Shown here: positions 35,662-60,865 of the stretch, piece after piece
Layout: each line of letters starts with the position of its first letter
Position numbering within the stretch: position 1 is the first letter of the stretch
Assembly (NCBI RefSeq): GCF_050920415.1
Contig: NZ_CP169309.1
Source: Escherichia coli
Lineage (GTDB): Bacteria > Pseudomonadota > Gammaproteobacteria > Enterobacterales > Enterobacteriaceae
Reading direction: 5' to 3' (one strand)
Length of the DNA: 64,000 bases
The notes under the pieces: model-generated
Databases searched by the model: none
Told to the model about the DNA's origin: nothing
What the model saw: the letters and a program-made list of their open reading frames with translations, nothing else
Made by a program: the position numbers and the translations under genes

Positions 35662-36612
35662 TCAGCCTGCGATAGCACCAACAACCTGTAATACTTCGTC
35701 ACGCGCCTGTTCTGGTTTTTCACTGTCAAGCCAGTGAACCCCTTCCCAACCACGCAGCCAGGTTATCTGCCGCTTCGCCAACTGTCTCGTGGCGCAAACA
35801 CCTCGATAAACCATTTCATCGTATGAGATTTCGCCTTCAAGGTAAGACCACATCTGGCGATAACCCACACAACGAATGGAAGGCAAGTCCGTATGCAAAT
35901 CTCCTCGGGCAAAAAGCGCCCGGACTTCTGCTTCAAAACCTGAAGCCAACATCTGATGAAAACGCTGCTCAATTCGTTGATGGAGCAGTTCACGGCTCGC
36001 CGGGGCGATGGCGAACTGATGCACCTGATACGGTAGAGCGTCTCCTGACGTTTGCGTCAGTTCCGTTAAAGTTTTACCCGAAATGAAAAAAACTTCCAGT
36101 GCCCGGGAAAGCCTTTGTGGATCATTTGGATGAATCCTTGCTGCCGCAACCGGATCTACCTCCTGAAGTTGACGATGCAATGACTCCCAACCTTGCTCTG
36201 CCGCCTGTTGCTCAATTCTGGCCCGTACTTCGGGGTCTGCCGACGGTAGCGGCGACAACCCTTCCAGCAATGCCTTGAAATACAACATCGTACCGCCCAC
36301 TAATAGTGGGATCCGCCCCGCCGCGGTGATATCGGCCATTTCCGCCAGCGCATCGCGGCGAAAATCAGCGGCCGAATAAGCCTGCGACGGATCGCGAATA
36401 TCCAGCAATCGGTGCGGCGCGGCGAGTAACTCTTCAGCGTTCGGCTTCGCCGTCCCGATATCCATCCCTTTGTAAATAAGGGCAGAATCAACGCTTATCA
36501 ACTCTACTGGTAAAATTTTACGCAGCTCAATGGCTAACGCCGTTTTACCGGAGGCCGTCGGCCCCATCAAAAAAATCGCCTTAGGCAGGCTCGCCTTACT
36601 GATATCACTCAT
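35662..36612 (-). CDS. miaA: tRNA dimethylallyltransferase MiaA
   Basis: 316-aa translation with P-loop GPTASGKT; the 3' part of the gene is known to carry hfq promoters, not individually resolved here. Confidence 0.96.
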
Positions 36613-38452
36613 CTTTCAGGGCTTTTATCGCCGGATGTAAATCAACAGATTGTAACAGCCCACCCGGCGGCGTTTTCACAAGTTGCGGACATAACCGTTC
36701 CACGTCCGCCAGCAGGGTGATGGCCTGTGCCATTGACCACTGCGCATGTTCGCTCATCAGATTTCGTGCAATCCACTGCGCAATATTGCCAGGTTCGAAT
36801 ACGGACTGCTTCGCCAGGTAGCCTATCAGTTCAGGAATCAAGATTTGTAAATTTTGTTGGCGTAAGGGTAAAGGCACGGCCCTGATGGTCACATACTGTG
36901 CATCGGACTGGAAATCAATACCCAATTCCGCCAGGGCAGACTGCGCTTTTTCTAATGCCGATTTTTCTTCGCCAGAAACTTTTAGCCGCAACGGAATAAG
37001 CAACGGCTGGGCGCAAACTGGCGTTTCACCCGGCGTCAACTGCGCCTGACGCAGCCAACGTTCTGCCACTGGCAGGGCTAAAAGTGAAATGTTGCCGTCG
37101 CGCTCCAGCAACGCACAGTCGGAATGGACGATAGTCAGTACCCGACCAAAACTCTGACTGTTCGCCGCAAGCGCTGGCTCCTGCGGTTCAGGTGCTTTTG
37201 GTTTTTGCATCGGCGCAGGCGTTTGCAAAAGCTGGCGATACACTTCACCTTGCTGTTTCTGGTAGCCTGGCTGCGCATTTGGCCAGGGGGCAGCCGGACG
37301 ACTGCCTGAGGCGGGCGCAGGAGTGTAGCGCGGAGCTACTGGCTCACGAACTGCCGGTTCAGCAAAATGATTGCGCCCCGCCGCCACGCGGTTTTCCGGG
37401 ATGGCGCGCGGTGCGGGTTGTGGTTCATCGTCCAGCGGTAGCGGCGTTTCCAGTTGCTGTTGTAGCACGCTCAGCACGCCCTGATAGATAAAGTCATGCA
37501 CCAGACGCGACTGATGGAAACGCACTTCGTGTTTGGCAGGGTGCACGTTGACGTCCACCTGATGTGGGTCGATCTCCAGATACAGCACAAATGCCGGTTG
37601 CTGATCGGCCCCCAGTTTGTCTTCACAGGCCTGGCGGATCGCGTGATTGATCAGGCGATCGCGCATCATGCGACCATTCACGTAGCAATACTGAATTTCT
37701 GCCAGTGTGGGCGTGGTGTGGTTTGGATCTGCCACCCAACCGCGCAGCGTGAGATCGCCGTGCTGCCATTCAATCGCCAGCGCATGTTCGAGAAAAGCGG
37801 TGCCGCAAATCGCGCCTAAACGCCGTTCTTTTTGCCCGCCTTCCGGCACTGCGCGGTACTGGCGAACTATTTTGCCGTTATGCGACAGATTGATAGTGAC
37901 GTCGAAACGCGCCAGCGCAATGCGGCGGATGATTTCATCAATATGGTTAAATTCGGTTTTCTCGGTACGCAGGAATTTGCGCCGCGCCGGGGTATTGTAG
38001 AACAGATCCAGCACTTCCAGCGTCGTTCCCACCGGATGCGCCGCCGGTTTAACCGTCACGTCCATATCGCGCCCTTCGGCATACGCTTGCCATGCCTCCT
38101 GCTGCTCTGCGGTGCGCGAAGTGAGCGTCAGACGGGAAACTGAACTGATACTCGCCAGCGCCTCACCGCGGAACCCCAGGCTGATAATAGCTTCGAGATC
38201 GTCCAGAGAGGCGATCTTACTGGTAGCATGACGCGCCAGCGCCAGCGCCAGTTCATCTTTTTTGATACCGCAGCCGTTATCACGAATGCGGATAAGTTTC
38301 GCCCCACCGCGTTCGATATCAATATCAATACGCGTCGCACCCGCATCGAGGCTGTTTTCCACCAGTTCTTTGACTACCGACGCAGGTCGCTCGACCACCT
38401 CACCTGCGGCAATCTGGTTCGCCAGTTGTGGCGGTAAGACCTGAATTGGCAT
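36605..38452 (-). CDS. mutL: DNA mismatch repair protein MutL
   Basis: 615-aa product starting [39 protein letters not shown]... at the ATG at 38452; 3' end overlaps miaA by 8 nt. Confidence 0.96.
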
Positions 38453-38461
38453 CAATCATCC

Positions 38462-39799
38462 TTAGTTTGGCAGCGTGCGATCTGGCGTCGTCACCGTGCT
38501 GGCCGTTTGTGCCGTTGCCCCCTGCGGCGCAGATTGCATCGGATGCGCAAGGAAATAATTGCGCAGGCCTTTGTAAATGGCTTCTGCCAGCTGTTGTTGG
38601 TAATCGTCGCTCGCCAGCAAACGTTCTTCGCTGTTGTTGCTGATAAAACCGGTTTCGACCAGTACTGATGGGATATCCGGCGAACGCAGAACGCCAAGGC
38701 TGGCATGTTCTGGTCGACGTTTATGAATTTCGCCGATGCGTTGCAACTGACTGATCATACTGGTCGCCACATCATACCCTACCCGCTGGGAATGACCGAA
38801 CTGTAAATCCAGCACCGCCTGGCTTAAATAGGGGTCAGACTGACTGTTCGCCAGCACATCGCCCGCTCCGCCCAGCAGCTCCGACTGTTTCTCATGCTGC
38901 TCCAGCCAGCTGGCCATTTCGCTGTTGGCGCGACGGTTAGAGAGCACCCATACGGAAGCGCCAGTCGCACTGCGGTTCGGTGCGGCATCAGCGTGAATCG
39001 AGACGAGGAAATTGGCGTTTTGCTTACGTGCCACATCGCTGCGCCCCATTACCGAGATAAAGTAATCCCCGTCACGGGTTAAAACGCCCTTAAACATCGG
39101 ATCATCATTGAGTAAAGTACGCAATTTACGTGCGATGGCGATGGTGACATTTTTCTCCCGCGTACCACCAGGGCCGATAGCGCCAGGATCCTGACCGCCG
39201 TGTCCGGCATCAATAGCGATGATAATTTTATCGCCTGTGTTAGCCGTCGCGCGCGCTGCCGGACGCGTTACCGTATTACTGCTGATAACACCCGTAGTGC
39301 GGTTACTTTCCGTTTTAAACGGATTGCGCGCCGGTTCGCTGACGCGCGGTGCGACAACCGCAGGCGTTTCAACGCGCTTCGCAACCACTGGCGGCGGTGG
39401 AGGCGGTGGCGGCGCATCAGCGTTAATCGTAAAGACGACAGTGTAATTGCTACCATTCTGCCGCTTCACCGCTTCGGTTTTACCGTTTTCGGTGAGATCG
39501 ACCACCAGCCGTAGCGTTTGTGCATCTTTAGGCGTTCCAGAGCGAATCGCCTTCACCAGATTATTACCGCTGAACAACAACGGTAGCCCCTGAATCACGC
39601 CCGTTTGTTTGATATCGAGCGCCACGGTGCGTTTGTTTTGATGGCTAAACGCGTAATCAGGATCGCCAGTAAAACTCAATGTTATTCGCGCCTGTTGATT
39701 ACCGTTAGAAACCTGAATATCAGAGAGCGTAGCGGCGCCAGCCTGCGCGCACAGCAGCAGCAACGTCGCTACCAACCAATTTCTGATGCGATACATCAT
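38462..39799 (-). CDS. amiB: N-acetylmuramoyl-L-alanine amidase AmiB
   Basis: 445-aa product starting [29 protein letters not shown]... (signal peptide), with an eight-proline run at residues 130-137 (nt 39389-39412). Confidence 0.95.
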
Positions 39800-39817
39800 C
39801 CCGCCACCTTTCAAAGG

Positions 39818-41796
<1,979 letters not shown>

Positions 41797-41798
<2 letters not shown>

Positions 41799-42936
41799 GT
41801 CAGAGCCCCTCGATCTCAATCAGTTAGCGCAAAAAATTAAACAGTGGGGGCTGGAACTGGGCTTTCAGCAGGTAGGTATTACCGATACCGATCTCAGCGC
41901 GTCCGAGCCCAAACTGCAAGCATGGCTGGACAAACAATACCACGGCGAAATGGACTGGATGGCGCGTCACGGTATGCTGCGCGCTCGCCCCCATGAGTTA
42001 TTGCCTGGTACGCTGCGCGTCATCAGCGTGCGGATGAATTACCTTCCTGCTAACGCCGCATTTGCCAGCACGCTGAAAAACCCCAAACTCGGCTATGTAA
42101 GTCGTTATGCGTTGGGCCGTGACTATCACAAACTTCTGCGCAACCGACTCAAAAAGCTGGGCGAGATGATTCAGCAACATTGTGTTTCGCTGAATTTTAG
42201 ACCGTTTGTCGATTCTGCGCCTATTCTCGAGCGCCCGTTAGCTGAAAAAGCAGGTCTTGGCTGGACAGGTAAGCACTCACTTATCCTCAATCGCGAGGCC
42301 GGTTCGTTCTTCTTTTTAGGTGAATTACTGGTCGATATTCCGCTGCCCGTGGATCAACCGGTCGAGGAAGGATGCGGTAAATGCGTGGCCTGTATGACGA
42401 TTTGCCCGACCGGCGCCATCGTCGAGCCATATACCGTCGATGCTCGCCGCTGTATCTCTTATCTCACCATTGAACTGGAAGGGGCGATCCCGGAAGAGCT
42501 GCGTCCATTGATGGGAAACCGTATTTACGGTTGCGATGACTGCCAGCTTATCTGCCCGTGGAATCGCTATTCGCAACTCACTAAAGAAGACGATTTCAGC
42601 CCGCGCAAACCACTACACGCACCGGAACTCATTGAGTTATTCGCCTGGAGTGAAGAGAAGTTTTTAAAAGTCACGGAAGGTTCGGCGATTCGCCGTATAG
42701 GTCACCTGCGTTGGCTGCGTAATATCGCCGTGGCATTAGGCAATGCCCCCTGGGATAAAACGATTTTGACAGCGCTGGAAAGTCGTAAAGGTGAGCACCC
42801 ACTTCTTGATGAGCACATAGCGTGGGCGATTGCGCAGCAAATCGAGAGGCGAAATGCGTGCGTCGTAGAGGTACAACTACCGAAAAAACAGCGTCTGGTT
42901 CGGGTGATTGAAAAAGGGTTACCGCGTGACGCCTGA
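41797..42936 (+). CDS. queG: epoxyqueuosine reductase QueG
   Basis: 379-aa product starting MSEPLDLNQLAQKIKQWGLELGF... with 4Fe-4S Cys motifs (CGKCVACMTICP, CDDCQLICPWN); ATG at 41797 is divergent from nnr and overlaps its start codon. Confidence 0.93.
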
Positions 42937-43205
42937 TTCATCCACAGCTTGTGAATAAAAATAAAAACGCATTGCAATTCAAGGCGAATAAAATCGTCAA
43001 GTGATCGACTCGACAAAACGAGATCTTAATTTTCAACCTATATATCAATAAGTTAAAAAAATACTATTCACCGTGCGAAGTTTCTTTGAAATTAAGATTA
43101 CGACATGAGGCTGTGGATAACTCTGTTTACAAGAGTTTGTCAGAGACAACAAAAACCAGCAATAACGCATCGCGTCGCTGTGGATATTTTATTGAGAGAA
43201 GAATT

Positions 43206-43281
<76 letters not shown>

Positions 43282-43316
43282 TTGGGTGGTCTGTGCTTTG
43301 CAGCACTTTCAAATTT

Positions 43317-43392
<76 letters not shown>

Positions 43393-43449
43393 GTACTGCT
43401 TAATTTTGCTTTCGTAATTTTCGCATTTCTGCGTCGTTACGGGAGGCGC

Positions 43450-43477
43450 ATTATACGAGAAATCTTTCCCTCTGCAA
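43450..43477 (-). promoter_or_regulatory. candidate sigma70 promoter of the tRNA-Gly operon
   Basis: On the minus strand, TTGCAG (43472-43477), a 16-nt spacer, then a perfect TATAAT (43450-43455) followed by a GC-rich discriminator (GCGCCTCCC); an A/T tract lies upstream. Confidence 0.55.
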
Positions 43478-43602
43478 CCCCCCTAAAAAAATTTTTTTGA
43501 GTTTTTATCTCAAGTGCTGAAATTATCAGCAAGACGTTCAATTTAGCGTCAAAATCACGCCGCCGCAAGTGGATTCCGGCGCTTACGTGACCAGGAAAAA
43601 TT

Positions 43603-44148
43603 TTACAGCTTGATAAAATGCTCGCGGTAGTAAGCCAGTTCTGCCACCGACTCACGGATATCATCCATCGCCTGATGCGTCCCCTGCTTGGTAAAGCCGT
43701 CAAGAATTTCCGGCTTCCAGCGGCGCGCCAGCTCTTTCAGTGTGCTGACATCCAGATAACGGTAGTGGAAGTAGGCTTCCAGCTCCGGCATGTATTTAAA
43801 CAGGAAGCGACGATCCTGGCCGATGCTGTTACCGCAAATCGGCGATTTTCCCGCAGGCACCCACTGTTTTAAGAATTCGAGCGTTGCCAGTTCAGCTTCA
43901 CGATCGCCCATTGTGCTCGCTTTCACGCGCTCCACCAGCCCGCTGGCGGTATGGGTGCGCACGTTCCAGTCATCCATCAGCGCCAGCTGTTCATCAGACT
44001 GGTGTACTGCAATGGTCGGCCCTTCTGCCAGAATATTCAGGTTGGCATCGGTCACCAGCGTGGCAATCTCAATAATGCGATCGCGCTCGGGATCCAGACC
44101 GGTCATCTCAAGATCGATCCAAATCAGGTTGTTTTCATTGGCACTCAT
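43603..44148 (-). CDS. orn: oligoribonuclease
   Basis: 181-aa product starting [29 protein letters not shown]... at the ATG at 44148; the ORF-track extension is rejected. Confidence 0.95.
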
Positions 44149-44242
44149 GCTATTTTCCACCCATTCACAGTGACTATATTGATCCACAATTGCGTGTATC
44201 ATAGATGTTTTGCCCATCAGGGGCGACCAGGAGTCAGTACGA

Positions 44243-45295
44243 TTGAGTAAAAATAAACTCTCCAAAGGCCAGCAGCGCCGCGTGAACGCCAATCACCAGC
44301 GTCGTCTTAAAACGTCTAAGGAGAAGCCCGACTACGACGACAATCTGTTTGGCGAGCCTGATGAAGGTATCGTCATCAGCCGCTTTGGTATGCACGCTGA
44401 TGTGGAATCCGCCGATGGCGACGTTCACCGCTGCAATATTCGCCGTACCATCCGTTCGCTGGTGACCGGCGATCGCGTAGTCTGGCGTCCGGGTAAACCG
44501 GCGGCAGAAGGCGTAAATGTCAAAGGGATCGTGGAAGCGGTGCATGAGCGCACCTCAGTGTTGACGCGCCCGGATTTCTACGACGGTGTGAAACCCATTG
44601 CTGCCAACATCGACCAGATTGTCATTGTCTCCGCGATTTTGCCGGAGCTGTCGCTCAATATTATCGACCGTTACCTGGTGGCCTGCGAAACCTTGCAGAT
44701 TGAGCCGATTATTGTGCTCAACAAGATAGACCTGCTGGACGACGAAGGCATGGAATTCGTCAACGAGCAGATGGATATCTACCGCAATATCGGTTATCGC
44801 GTATTGATGGTTTCCAGCCATACTCAGGATGGACTGAAACCGCTGGAAGAGGCGTTGACCGGGCGCATCAGTATTTTTGCCGGGCAGTCTGGCGTCGGCA
44901 AATCCAGCCTGCTGAACGCGTTGCTGGGGCTGCAAAAAGAGATCCTGACCAACGACGTCTCGGATAACTCGGGGCTTGGTCAGCACACCACGACTGCCGC
45001 GCGGCTGTATCACTTCCCGCACGGCGGTGATGTGATTGATTCCCCAGGTGTGCGTGAGTTTGGTCTCTGGCATCTGGAACCGGAACAAATTACTCGGGGT
45101 TTTGTCGAATTCCATGACTACTTAGGTCTGTGTAAATATCGCGATTGCAAACACGATACCGATCCGGGCTGCGCTATCCGGGAAGCAGTTGAGGAAGGGA
45201 AAATCGCGGAAACCCGTTTCGAAAACTATCACCGTATTCTGGAAAGCATGGCGCAGGTAAAAACGCGTAAAAACTTTTCTGATACGGATGACTGA
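44243..45295 (+). CDS. rsgA: small-subunit ribosome biogenesis GTPase RsgA
   Basis: 350-aa product (TTG start) [23 protein letters not shown]... with CCAGGAG RBS upstream of the TTG at 44243; Walker [10 protein letters not shown]. Confidence 0.92.
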
Positions 45296-45338
45296 CAATT
45301 AAGCTAACCGTCGTTAGAATCGTCCCCTTTTTTTCAGG

Positions 45339-45358
45339 ATCCGGCATGTAGGCCGGAT
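45339..45358. repeat. REP-like palindrome between rsgA and psd
   Basis: ATCCGGCATGTAGGCCGGAT, a near-perfect palindrome with the CCGGATC-type ends of REP units. Confidence 0.45.
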
Positions 45359-45391
45359 CAGGAACGACAAAACAATGGCCTGGAGGCTACC

Positions 45392-46360
45392 TTGTTAAAT
45401 TCATTTAAACTTTCGCTACAGTACATTCTGCCGAAATTATGGCTTACTCGCCTGGCGGGTTGGGGCGCAAGCAAGCGGGCAGGATGGCTGACAAAACTGG
45501 TTATCGATCTGTTCGTTAAATACTACAAGGTCGACATGAAAGAGGCGCAAAAGCCGGACACCGCCAGCTACCGCACCTTTAACGAATTCTTTGTCCGTCC
45601 GCTGCGTGACGAAGTACGCCCAATCGATACCGATCCTAATGTACTGGTCATGCCTGCCGATGGCGTTATCAGCCAGTTAGGTAAAATCGAAGAAGATAAA
45701 ATCCTGCAAGCTAAAGGCCACAACTACAGCCTCGAAGCTCTGCTGGCAGGGAACTATCTGATGGCGGATCTTTTCCGTAACGGTACGTTTGTGACCACTT
45801 ACCTCTCTCCGCGTGACTACCACCGCGTGCACATGCCGTGCAACGGTATTCTGCGTGAGATGATCTATGTGCCGGGCGATCTCTTCTCCGTTAACCATCT
45901 CACCGCTCAGAACGTGCCGAATCTGTTTGCCCGTAACGAACGCGTGATCTGCCTGTTCGATACCGAATTTGGCACGATGGCGCAGATTCTGGTCGGGGCG
46001 ACGATTGTTGGCAGCATTGAAACTGTCTGGGCGGGCACCATTACGCCGCCGCGCGAAGGCATCATCAAGCGCTGGACCTGGCCTGCCGGAGAAAACGACG
46101 GTTCAGTGGCGCTGCTGAAAGGCCAGGAAATGGGTCGCTTTAAACTCGGCTCTACCGTTATCAACCTGTTTGCACCGGGTAAAGTTAATCTGGTTGAGCA
46201 ACTGGAAAGCCTGTCTGTCACGAAAATTGGTCAGCCGCTGGCAGTATCTACCGAAACCTTTGTTGCGCCAGACGCAGAACCTGCCCCGCTTCCTGCCGAA
46301 GAGATCGAGGCAGAACACGACGCCAGCCCATTGGTTGACGACAAAAAAGACCAGGTCTAA
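45392..46360 (+). CDS. psd: phosphatidylserine decarboxylase proenzyme
   Basis: 322-aa product [32 protein letters not shown]...; apparent TTG start at 45392 with TGGAGG RBS. Confidence 0.94.
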
Positions 46361-51869: not shown

Positions 51870-52847
51870 TTATGCCCGGTCAACGCTAAAGGCGATGACT
51901 TCAGCCAGTGTCTCCGCACCCAGCGCCAACATCACCAGACGATCAACGCCTAATGCCACGCCGGAACAGTCAGGCATACCGACTTTCAAGGCTTCAATAA
52001 GATTCTCGTCAATGGGGTGCTGCGGCAAACCGCGCGCCGCGCGCTTACGGTTATCTTGTTCAAAACGTTGTTGCTGCTCACGGGCATCCGTCAATTCATG
52101 GAAACCATTCGCCAGCTCAATACCTTTATAATAAACCTCAAAGCGTTCAGCGACCCGATGATCTTCGGTACTGATTTGCGCCAGTGATGCCTGGCTGGCC
52201 GGAAAGTGGTACACAAAGGTCGGTTTTTCTTTGCCAATATTTGGCTCTACGCCAAAGGTAAACAGCAGTTGTAGCAGCGTGTCGCGGTCTTCTTCGGTAT
52301 CGGCAACGTTGCTCAAATCCAGTTTCGCTGCCACTTCCCGCAGTTGCGTTTTGTCGGCAGAGAGCGGGTCAATTTCCAGATAACGCAAGAAAGCTTGTTG
52401 ATAAGAAAGACTTTCTGCTGCCGGGCAGTCCAGCACCTGTTGCAAGAGATCGTCCACCTCGTTCATCAACCGGTACATATCATAGTGCGGTCGATACCAC
52501 TCAAGCATAGTGAACTCAGGGTTGTGATAACGCCCCATCTCTTCATTACGGAAGCTGCGGCACAGCTGGAATACCGGCCCACAACCGGCAACCAGCAGGC
52601 GTTTCATGTGGTATTCCGGGCTGGTCATTAACCAGAGATTCATCCCCTGCGAATGCCCGGGGCCAACGAAACGCGTCTCAAACGGGACCAAATGAATATC
52701 GGTTACCGTCGCCTGGCTCATACAAGGCGTCTCCACCTCCAGCACTCCACGATCGGCAAAGAAACGACGGATCTCCGCCATAATCGCCGCGCGTTTTAAT
52801 AAGTTAGGAATGGATGCGCTCGGCTGCCAGGATGCCGTTTCGCTCAT
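51870..52847 (-). CDS. epmA: EF-P lysine-34 lysyltransferase EpmA (PoxA)
   Basis: 325-aa class-II LysRS-like product starting [41 protein letters not shown]... at the ATG at 52847. Confidence 0.94.
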
Positions 52848-59228: not shown

Positions 59229-59795
59229 TTACTTCACGCGAGAGACGTATTCACCAGAGCGGGTATCCACTTTGATGACTTCGCCGATCTGCACGAACAG
59301 CGGAACTTTAACCACAGCGCCAGTAGACAGGGTAGCCGGTTTGCCGCCAGTACCTGCGGTATCCCCTTTCAGGCCTGGATCGGTATCAACGATTTCCAGT
59401 TCAACAAAGTTCGGCGGAGTAACGGAGATCGGCTGACCATTCCACAGAGTTACGATACACTCTGCCTGATCCAGCAACCATTTAGCGTTGTCGCCAATTG
59501 CTTTTGCATCAGCAGACAGTTGCTCGAAAGTTTCGTTGTTCATGAAGTGCCAGAACTCACCGTCGTTGTACAGGTAAGTCAGGTTCATATCGACAACATC
59601 AGCGCCTTCAGCGGAATCAGTAGATTTGAAGGTTTTTTCTACGCGAGTACCGGTCAGCAGACGACGCAGTTTAACGCGAGCAAATGCCTGGCCTTTACCC
59701 GGTTTTACGAATTCACTCGCTTCAACCGCGTAAGGTTCGCCGTCTAACATGATTTTAAGACCAGCACGAAAATCGTTGCTATAGTACGTTGCCAT
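59229..59795 (-). CDS. efp: elongation factor P
   Basis: 188-aa translation [46 protein letters not shown]... (Lys34 modification site in KPGKGQA). Confidence 0.97.
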
Positions 59796-59836: not shown

Positions 59837-60865
59837 ATGGCGCATATTGTAACCCTAAATACCCCATCCAGAGAAGATTGGTTAACGCAACTTGCCGATG
59901 TTGTGACCGATCCTGATGAACTTCTGCGTCTTTTGAATATAGACGCGGACGAAAAACTGTTGGCCGGACGCAGCGCCAAAAAGCTGTTTGCCCTGCGTGT
60001 TCCCCGCTCATTTATCGATCGCATGGAGAAAGGCAATCCGGACGATCCACTTTTGCGTCAGGTACTTACCTCGCAAGATGAGTTTGTCGTCGCGCCCGGA
60101 TTCTCCACCGACCCGCTGGAAGAACAGCACAGCGTAGTGCCTGGTTTGTTGCATAAATACCACAACCGGGCGCTATTGCTGGTCAAAGGCGGCTGTGCGG
60201 TAAATTGCCGTTATTGCTTTCGTCGCCATTTCCCGTATGCCGAAAATCAGGGCAACAAGCGAAACTGGCAGACGGCACTTGAGTATGTTGCAGCGCATCC
60301 GGAACTGGACGAGATGATTTTCTCCGGCGGCGATCCGCTGATGGCGAAAGATCACGAGCTGGACTGGTTGCTCACACAACTGGAAGCCATCCCGCATATC
60401 AAACGTCTGCGGATTCACAGCCGTCTGCCGATTGTGATCCCGGCACGCATCACAGATGCGCTGGTCGAACGCTTTTCACATTCTACGCTGCAAATCTTGC
60501 TGGTGAATCACATCAACCATGCCAATGAGGTAGATGAAACATTCCGCCAGGCGATGGCTAAGTTGCGCCGGGTAGGCGTTACTTTGCTGAACCAGAGCGT
60601 TCTGTTACGTGGTGTGAACGATAACGCACAAACGCTGGCAAACCTGAGTAATGCGTTGTTCGATGCGGGCGTGATGCCGTATTACCTGCATGTGCTCGAT
60701 AAAGTACAGGGCGCGGCGCATTTTATGGTGAGTGATGACGAAGCACGGCAGATTATGCGTGAGCTGCTGACGCTGGTATCTGGATATATGGTGCCGAAAC
60801 TGGCGCGCGAGATTGGCGGCGAACCCAGCAAAACGCCGCTGGATCTCCAGCTACCCCAGCAGTAA
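59837..60865 (+). CDS. epmB: EF-P beta-lysylation enzyme EpmB (lysine 2,3-aminomutase-like radical SAM protein)
   Basis: 342-aa translation with radical-SAM CxxxCxxC motif (CAVNCRYCFRRH); divergent from efp. Confidence 0.95.
   Translation: MAHIVTLNTPSREDWLTQLADVVTDPDELLRLLNIDADEKLLAGRSAKKLFALRVPRSFIDRMEKGNPDDPLLRQVLTSQDEFVVAPGFSTDPLEEQHSVVPGLLHKYHNRALLLVKGGCAVNCRYCFRRHFPYAENQGNKRNWQTALEYVAAHPELDEMIFSGGDPLMAKDHELDWLLTQLEAIPHIKRLRIHSRLPIVIPARITDALVERFSHSTLQILLVNHINHANEVDETFRQAMAKLRRVGVTLLNQSVLLRGVNDNAQTLANLSNALFDAGVMPYYLHVLDKVQGAAHFMVSDDEARQIMRELLTLVSGYMVPKLAREIGGEPSKTPLDLQLPQQ

Follow-up and report, generated by a model that had tools for sequence, protein, structure and literature searches.

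The cell-division N-acetylmuramoyl-L-alanine amidase AmiB of an Escherichia coli genome carries a run of eight consecutive prolines, and the explanation we prefer, with a probability of about 0.6, is that these prolines are kept as a short stiff spacer at the junction of the AMIN domain and the interdomain linker, with dependence on elongation factor P (EF-P) as a tolerated cost. The tract, its stalling and its EF-P dependence are already known for the K-12 allele. The analysis adds the position of the tract at the AMIN/linker junction, its apparent restriction to Enterobacteriaceae, a probable selection on proline, the length alleles found within E. coli, and a gene neighbourhood that is older than the tract. 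These additions are modest and evolutionary, and the significance beyond confirmation is little.

The proline tract and its place in AmiB

The amiB gene occupies 38462..39799 on the minus strand of the window, the 64,000-nucleotide stretch of E. coli DNA that was analysed, and encodes 445 amino acids plus a stop codon. The protein matches the NCBIfam equivalog model NF007751 at 976.3 bits (cutoff 532) over residues 1-445 of 445, and the identical allele, WP_000990284.1, is annotated as amiB in E. coli NZ_CP169399.1 (RefSeq). The gene order tsaE-amiB-mutL is found here, by the annotation of the identical allele, and in most of the 40 amiB-containing loci.

Eight consecutive proline codons lie in frame in amiB at 39389..39412 (minus strand) and encode Pro130 to Pro137. 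The codons CCG CCA CCG CCT CCA CCG CCG CCA (CCGCCACCGCCTCCACCGCCGCCA, the reverse complement of window 39389-39412) agree exactly with the codons, coordinates and residue numbers given for the run by a sequence-only reading of the window. K-12 amiB is the same gene with eight prolines at the same residues, 130-137, and differs by synonymous codons and by Val129 (V-P8-VVAKRVE) in place of the Ala129 found here (A-P8-VVAKRVE). A stalling motif consists of at least three consecutive proline codons in a translated ORF, and amiB has eight, all of the form CCN. Proline accounts for 4.3% of the residues in the proteins of the window; at this composition the expected number of runs of eight or more is 2.4e-7 per window and about 2e-5 per proteome of 1.4 million residues, and the tract is far beyond the composition-only expectation. 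Of the window's 63 ORFs, 19 contain at least one PP, and only AmiB reaches PPP or more.

The DNA of the tract has an imperfect 9-nt period (2.9 copies, 88% match) built of mixed synonymous codons. A phase-variable simple-sequence locus was considered and rejected, given the mixed codons, the lack of a homogeneous repeat and the reading of all alleles in frame. An antisense ORF of 104 amino acids at 39200-39514 on the plus strand, containing WRRWRRWRR, was also set aside as the mere reverse-frame image of CCN codons in a well-supported gene.

AmiB begins with a signal peptide region at approximately residues 1-22 (39734..39799, minus strand), assigned from the sequence and an AlphaFold2 helix at residues 2-17 with an inferred cleavage site; inspection of these residues revealed no twin-arginine motif. 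The AMIN domain, a septal peptidoglycan-binding and targeting domain, spans residues 27-127 (39419..39721, minus strand) by its match to Pfam PF11741 (residues 27-112, 24.9 bits against a cutoff of 20.5) and by the AlphaFold2 strands. It is followed by an interdomain linker at residues 128-191 (39227..39418, minus strand), delimited by the AlphaFold2 model and by variation among homologues, of which the proline tract is the first element. The Amidase_3 catalytic domain covers residues 192-418 (38546..39226, minus strand) and matches Pfam PF01520 over residues 194-413 at 164.7 bits. His200, Glu215 and His269 are invariant in an alignment of 52 homologues and are the residues that we take to be the zinc ligands from knowledge of the Amidase_3 family. 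The 234-residue chain of PDB 8c0j, an AmiB catalytic domain, aligns to residues 190-422 and is near-identical; it is the only closely matching AmiB structure among those solved, begins at residue 190, and no solved structure covering the linker was found.

The AlphaFold2 model of AmiB was built on the 52-sequence alignment. The AMIN β-strands fall within residues 24-127 at pLDDT 85-96, the final strand being 118-127, residues 128-191 have no secondary structure, and the catalytic domain is modelled with confidence from residue 192. The pLDDT drops from 92 (residues 121-130) to 53 (131-140) and then to below 50 (141-190). The model thus places the tract directly after the last AMIN strand, where it is predicted to open a disordered interdomain linker, and the approximately 55 disordered residues that follow it are not proline-rich. 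In the FtsEX-EnvC-AmiB complex of Pseudomonas aeruginosa the AMIN domain relocates via a flexible linker that was left unbuilt (PMC10214136), and the linker region of AmiB is treated here as a tether on the basis of that complex.

Two features elsewhere in the protein were noted. The pLDDT falls below 50 at residues 308-314 and 318-320 (window ~38840-38875), inside the otherwise confident catalytic domain, and this low-confidence 308-320 segment is possibly the counterpart of the regulatory segment that occludes the active site in cell-division amidases. AmiB proteins of 420 and 414 amino acids from E. coli/Shigella have in-frame linker deletions of 25 or 31 residues that lie downstream of the tract, at approximately residues 154-185 (window ~39245-39340), apparently between short ...PAR/...AAR repeats. 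Short variants of 428 and 412 amino acids have their deletions within the catalytic-domain region instead.

Eight residues in a polyproline-II conformation would form a spacer of about 2.5 nm right after the AMIN domain, and such a spacer could help to keep the catalytic domain at a distance from the AMIN domain or to point it away. A comparable element exists in TonB, where (Glu-Pro)n/(Lys-Pro)n repeats form a proline-rich, extended, non-globular periplasmic spacer between functional parts. The AmiB tract resembles it as an extended proline segment separating two parts of an envelope protein, but the TonB spacer is much longer, with prolines and charged residues in alternation, whereas the AmiB tract is a short homopolymer. 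Against a spacer stand the low AlphaFold2 confidence at the tract, the many AmiB orthologues, a majority, that work without any polyproline, and the shortened tract in a part of the E. coli genomes.

Distribution of the tract and constraint on its prolines

The species distribution was surveyed by scanning around psd in one genome per species and then running tblastn. Runs of six to nine prolines (P6-P9) stand at the same AmiB position in 14 Enterobacteriaceae loci from Enterobacter, Citrobacter, Pseudocitrobacter, Pluralibacter and relatives, and Mangrovibacter AmiB has PPP at the site. The longest AmiB proline run is only 1-2 in 25 loci from the Erwiniaceae, Yersiniaceae, Hafniaceae, Budviciaceae, Morganellaceae and Vibrionaceae. 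The genera without the tract are Erwinia, Pantoea, Rosenbergiella, Tatumella, Acerihabitans, Yersinia, Serratia, Hafnia, Budvicia, Proteus, Arsenophonus, Moellerella, Vibrio and Salinivibrio. Among 51 representatives with both domains (50% identity clusters), 36 have no adjacent prolines in the linker, nine have a longest run of 2 and three of 3; runs of 4, 5 and 6 occur in one representative each, and none is longer than 6. The tract therefore appears on these sequences to be an Enterobacteriaceae-specific, family-level innovation.

The longest runs were seen in individual proteins. Nine prolines are present in Enterobacter cloacae DSM 26481 (L015) and in Enterobacteriaceae RIT691 (L023), and ten in one protein (P0118) that is 88% identical to the query and has a Citrobacter-like linker.

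All 107 tract codons in 15 tract-bearing sequences are CCN, the third positions are G in 53, T in 26, A in 25 and C in 3, and no two of the 15 codon series are alike. Invariant CCN with scrambled third positions is a signature that points to purifying selection on proline rather than to a recent slippage product. The same data bear on the distinctly unlikely alternative that the run is a functionless slippage product in a fast-evolving disordered linker, tolerated owing to the presence of EF-P and to AmiB being needed only at a low level. Such an origin would fit the linker varying more among homologues, in both length and sequence, than any other part of AmiB, the length differences in whole codons (P6, P7, P8, P9 and P10), the imperfect 9-nt tandem repeat at the tract, and the natural large in-frame deletions elsewhere in the linker. 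A functionless run would nevertheless be expected to decay through first and second codon positions, yet only the third positions are randomised. The flanking FTINAD and VVAKRVE segments are conserved too, and a run produced entirely by recent slippage is hard to reconcile with the mixed codons. Eight prolines are retained in the E. coli/Shigella variants that lack 25 or 31 downstream linker residues.

Within E. coli, amiB was found in 5425 of 5426 complete genomes. Variation of tract length among strains, proposed as a check by the sequence-only reading, does occur and comes in whole codons, with P8 the commonest form and P7, P6 and PPSPPP also present. Twelve E. coli amiB alleles were read directly. 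Seven of the 12, among them those of the window, HS, K-12 and O157:H7, encode eight prolines and do so with no fewer than four different synonymous codon series; P7 is encoded by two with differing flanking residues, P6 by one and PPSPPP by two. Among 59 full-length genes sampled at even intervals, 49 are 1338 bp, 1 is 1335 bp and 9 are 1332 bp long, and 558 genomes have at least 99% identity to the PPSPPP allele. A 6-codon tract, mostly PPSPPP, is present in roughly 10-15% of complete E. coli genomes, a figure derived from the 59-gene sample and identity bands and not from a full allele census, and eight uninterrupted prolines are therefore not required. The natural P8, P7, P6 and PPSPPP alleles are ready material for relating tract length to EF-P dependence.

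At the DNA level the window allele shares about 96-97% identity with most E. coli amiB sequences. The window itself, judged over positions 36605-46360, belongs to an uncommon E. coli lineage: of 5,425 genomes, only 3 reach 99% identity in amiB, 2 in mutL and 14 in psd; the best match is strain MFDS1022581, in which amiB and psd are 100% and mutL is 99.9% identical. The 90-95% identity band holds 717 genomes for amiB compared to 2 for mutL and 3 for psd, and amiB is much more polymorphic than its neighbours.

Stalling at the tract and its possible consequences

The published stalling data concern the K-12 (BW25113) allele, which has the same P8, and not the allele of the window. Martens 2015 ranks the amiB run as the longest stretch of prolines in E. 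coli, and ribosome footprints peak at amiB codons 130-138 in the wild type, where EF-P is present (PMC4402525). Ribosome profiling by Sieber 2024 scored the six PPP motifs and the PPV motif of amiB (PMC11611912, Supplementary Data 3B), with asymmetry scores of 1.0-1.24 in the wild type, 6.7-10.5 in Δefp, 1.0-2.9 in ΔefpL and 3.8-6.7 in Δefp overproducing EfpL. The footprint peak and the Δefp scores, in vivo data for K-12, bear out the earlier claim that the run is a strong stalling motif needing EF-P. The further suggestion that AmiB expression is a sensitive readout of EF-P function is plausible in that the rise in asymmetry score (up to 9.5) ranks near the top of the published table, although it is exceeded by those of cpxA (32), ybjD (12.6) and uvrA (11.2) (PMC11611912).

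Ribosomes pile up at the tract, far more so without EF-P, and efficient completion of AmiB therefore depends on EF-P. AmiB was reportedly translated in vitro with and without EF-P by Doerfel in 2013. A protein-level measurement of AmiB in EF-P pathway mutants (efp, epmA, epmB) was not found in the literature, and amiB is absent from the supplements of Elgamal 2014 and Qi 2018. In this genome EF-P is activated by EpmA and EpmB; the genes for all three proteins are intact in the window and score above their equivalog cutoffs, and epmC lies outside the window.

The tract resembles the PPPIP motif of CadC, as both are consecutive prolines in an E. coli protein that stall ribosomes without EF-P. 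The CadC motif sets the copy number of a regulator, a demonstrated regulatory role, whereas the AmiB tract lies in a periplasmic interdomain linker and has no known regulatory role. CadC PPPIP is the founding example of EF-P-dependent expression (Ude et al. 2013), and the Δefp asymmetry scores of the two are similar, 10.8 for cadC PPP and up to 10.5 for amiB (PMC11611912).

The run could instead be retained as a translational governor, since the ribosome pause itself is useful; we consider this unlikely. A pause here could buy time for export of the freshly made signal peptide and AMIN domain; alternatively, it could make AmiB output follow EF-P activity and, through it, translation capacity. 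Conservation of uninterrupted proline, beyond mere proline-richness, would equally fit a selected translational pause: P6-P9 persists without interruption across Enterobacteriaceae genera despite the translational cost, with synonymous turnover only. The footprint peak is present even in the wild type with EF-P (PMC4402525), the pause falls exactly at a domain boundary, and regulatory roles for E. coli polyproline motifs are argued in general terms by Qi et al. 2018 (PMC5811046). The wild-type asymmetry score of ~1.0-1.24, however, means little net ribosome loss when EF-P is present, the tract length ranges from 6 to 10 with the PPSPPP allele common in E. coli, and AmiB of other families lacks the motif with the same domain order and need for export. 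No condition is known in which EF-P activity tunes AmiB. In the explanation we prefer, a spacer at the AMIN/linker junction, EF-P dependence would be a cost that is tolerated and not a selected function.

A stall in amiB might also act on the genes downstream. In such a polarity switch, stalling under limiting EF-P would uncouple transcription from translation and cause termination inside amiB, lowering expression of mutL-miaA-hfq. We regard it as very unlikely. The mutL start lies 9 nt past the amiB stop on the same strand, and the mutL-miaA-hfq superoperon has internal promoters, which would buffer polarity. In reporters, transcription beyond a polyproline motif is terminated by Rho or at intrinsic terminators when EF-P is lost (Elgamal, Artsimovitch and Ibba 2016; PMC5021804), and amiB is alike in having polyproline upstream of the co-directional genes mutL, miaA and hfq. 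The reporter effect differs in that it used engineered rut sites or terminators and cadA, whereas the amiB tract is without a downstream rut-like sequence; the main text of that paper is without amiB, by full-text search, and without mutL (PMC5021804). Scanning the amiB mRNA beyond the tract turned up no rut-like sequence rich in C and poor in G; the C/G ratio peaks at 1.4, over the tract. There is a yet fainter chance that Enterobacteriaceae fixed the uninterrupted run as a valve gated by EF-P, in which low EF-P would stall ribosomes at the AMIN/linker boundary and reduce AmiB and also, as transcription and translation lose their coupling, the mismatch-repair and RNA-chaperone genes mutL-miaA-hfq. 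Such a valve, if real, would link translation capacity to septal cell-wall cleavage and mutation rate.

Gene neighbourhood of amiB and the EF-P genes

The window also encodes EF-P and both of its β-lysylation enzymes. The EF-P--(R)-β-lysine ligase gene epmA is at 51870..52847 on the minus strand (NF006828 equivalog, 604 bits), efp is at 59229..59795 on the minus strand (TIGR00038 equivalog, 253.6 bits), and epmB, encoding the radical-SAM aminomutase of EF-P β-lysylation, is divergently adjacent to efp at 59837..60865 on the plus strand (TIGR03821 equivalog, 532.6 bits). The three genes are annotated likewise in the near-identical RefSeq genome NZ_CP169399.1. Measured from the tract, epmA is 12.5 kb, efp 19.8 kb and epmB 20.4-21.5 kb away, which accords with the distance of 12-21 kb first given for EF-P, EpmA and EpmB. 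By annotation, about 10 unrelated genes separate amiB from epmA and about 20 separate it from efp, on both strands; they include frdABCD, ampC, blc, sugE, ecnAB, yjeM, mscM, psd, rsgA, orn, tRNA-Gly, queG and nnr.

This arrangement follows a conserved order, mutL-amiB-tsaE … orn-rsgA-psd-(mscM)-epmA-frdABCD … efp-epmB (window ~36600-60900). The distance between amiB and epmA is 8.7-12.8 kb in 18 sampled species without AmiB polyproline, three Vibrionaceae included, and amiB and efp are 9.9-18.2 kb apart in tract-less species where the locus extends far enough. Vibrio gelatinilyticus has amiB 9.5 kb from epmA and 14.1 kb from efp, and amiB-epmA linkage is also found in V. penaeicida and Salinivibrio costicola. 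An expectation that amiB of Vibrio is far from efp and epmA was dropped, as the genes are linked in these three Vibrionaceae loci (L076, L080 and L084), the only three long enough to judge linkage in a sample that does not include V. cholerae.

The neighbourhood is kept in taxa without the tract, and the linkage is therefore older than the tract and independent of it. The judgement that the linkage was probably coincidental holds for the tract, given the 18 linked tract-less species, and can be refined from chance placement to an old inherited gene order. The tract arose in a gene already near the EF-P genes, and their proximity reflects inherited order with no mechanistic link.

We give next to no credence to the idea that amiB lies near efp, epmA and epmB because it is the most demanding client of the EF-P system and is co-inherited or co-regulated with it. 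[quoted passage not shown] By annotation, amiB is neither co-transcribed with nor directly next to any of efp, epmA and epmB, and linkage does not co-occur with the polyproline tract across the taxa (18 species). The closeness of these three genes to amiB comes from inherited synteny and is not to be mistaken for functional clustering.

Several departures from the common gene order were seen around psd. The epmA gene is missing beside psd/mscM in Morganellaceae loci (Proteus, Arsenophonus, Moellerella, Xenorhabdus, Photorhabdus and Morganella) and in four Pantoea loci. Pasteurellaceae loci have none of the genes of the mutL/amiB/tsaE/epmA/efp/epmB order near psd.

By annotation, the region at window ~26700-60900 appears unusually dense in translation and RNA genes. 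These genes are rlmB, rnr, hflX, hfq, miaA, tsaE, queG, two tRNA-Gly, orn, rsgA, epmA, efp and epmB. EF-P itself (window 59229-59795, minus strand) has one diproline, at residues 127-128 (…SVTPPNFV…).
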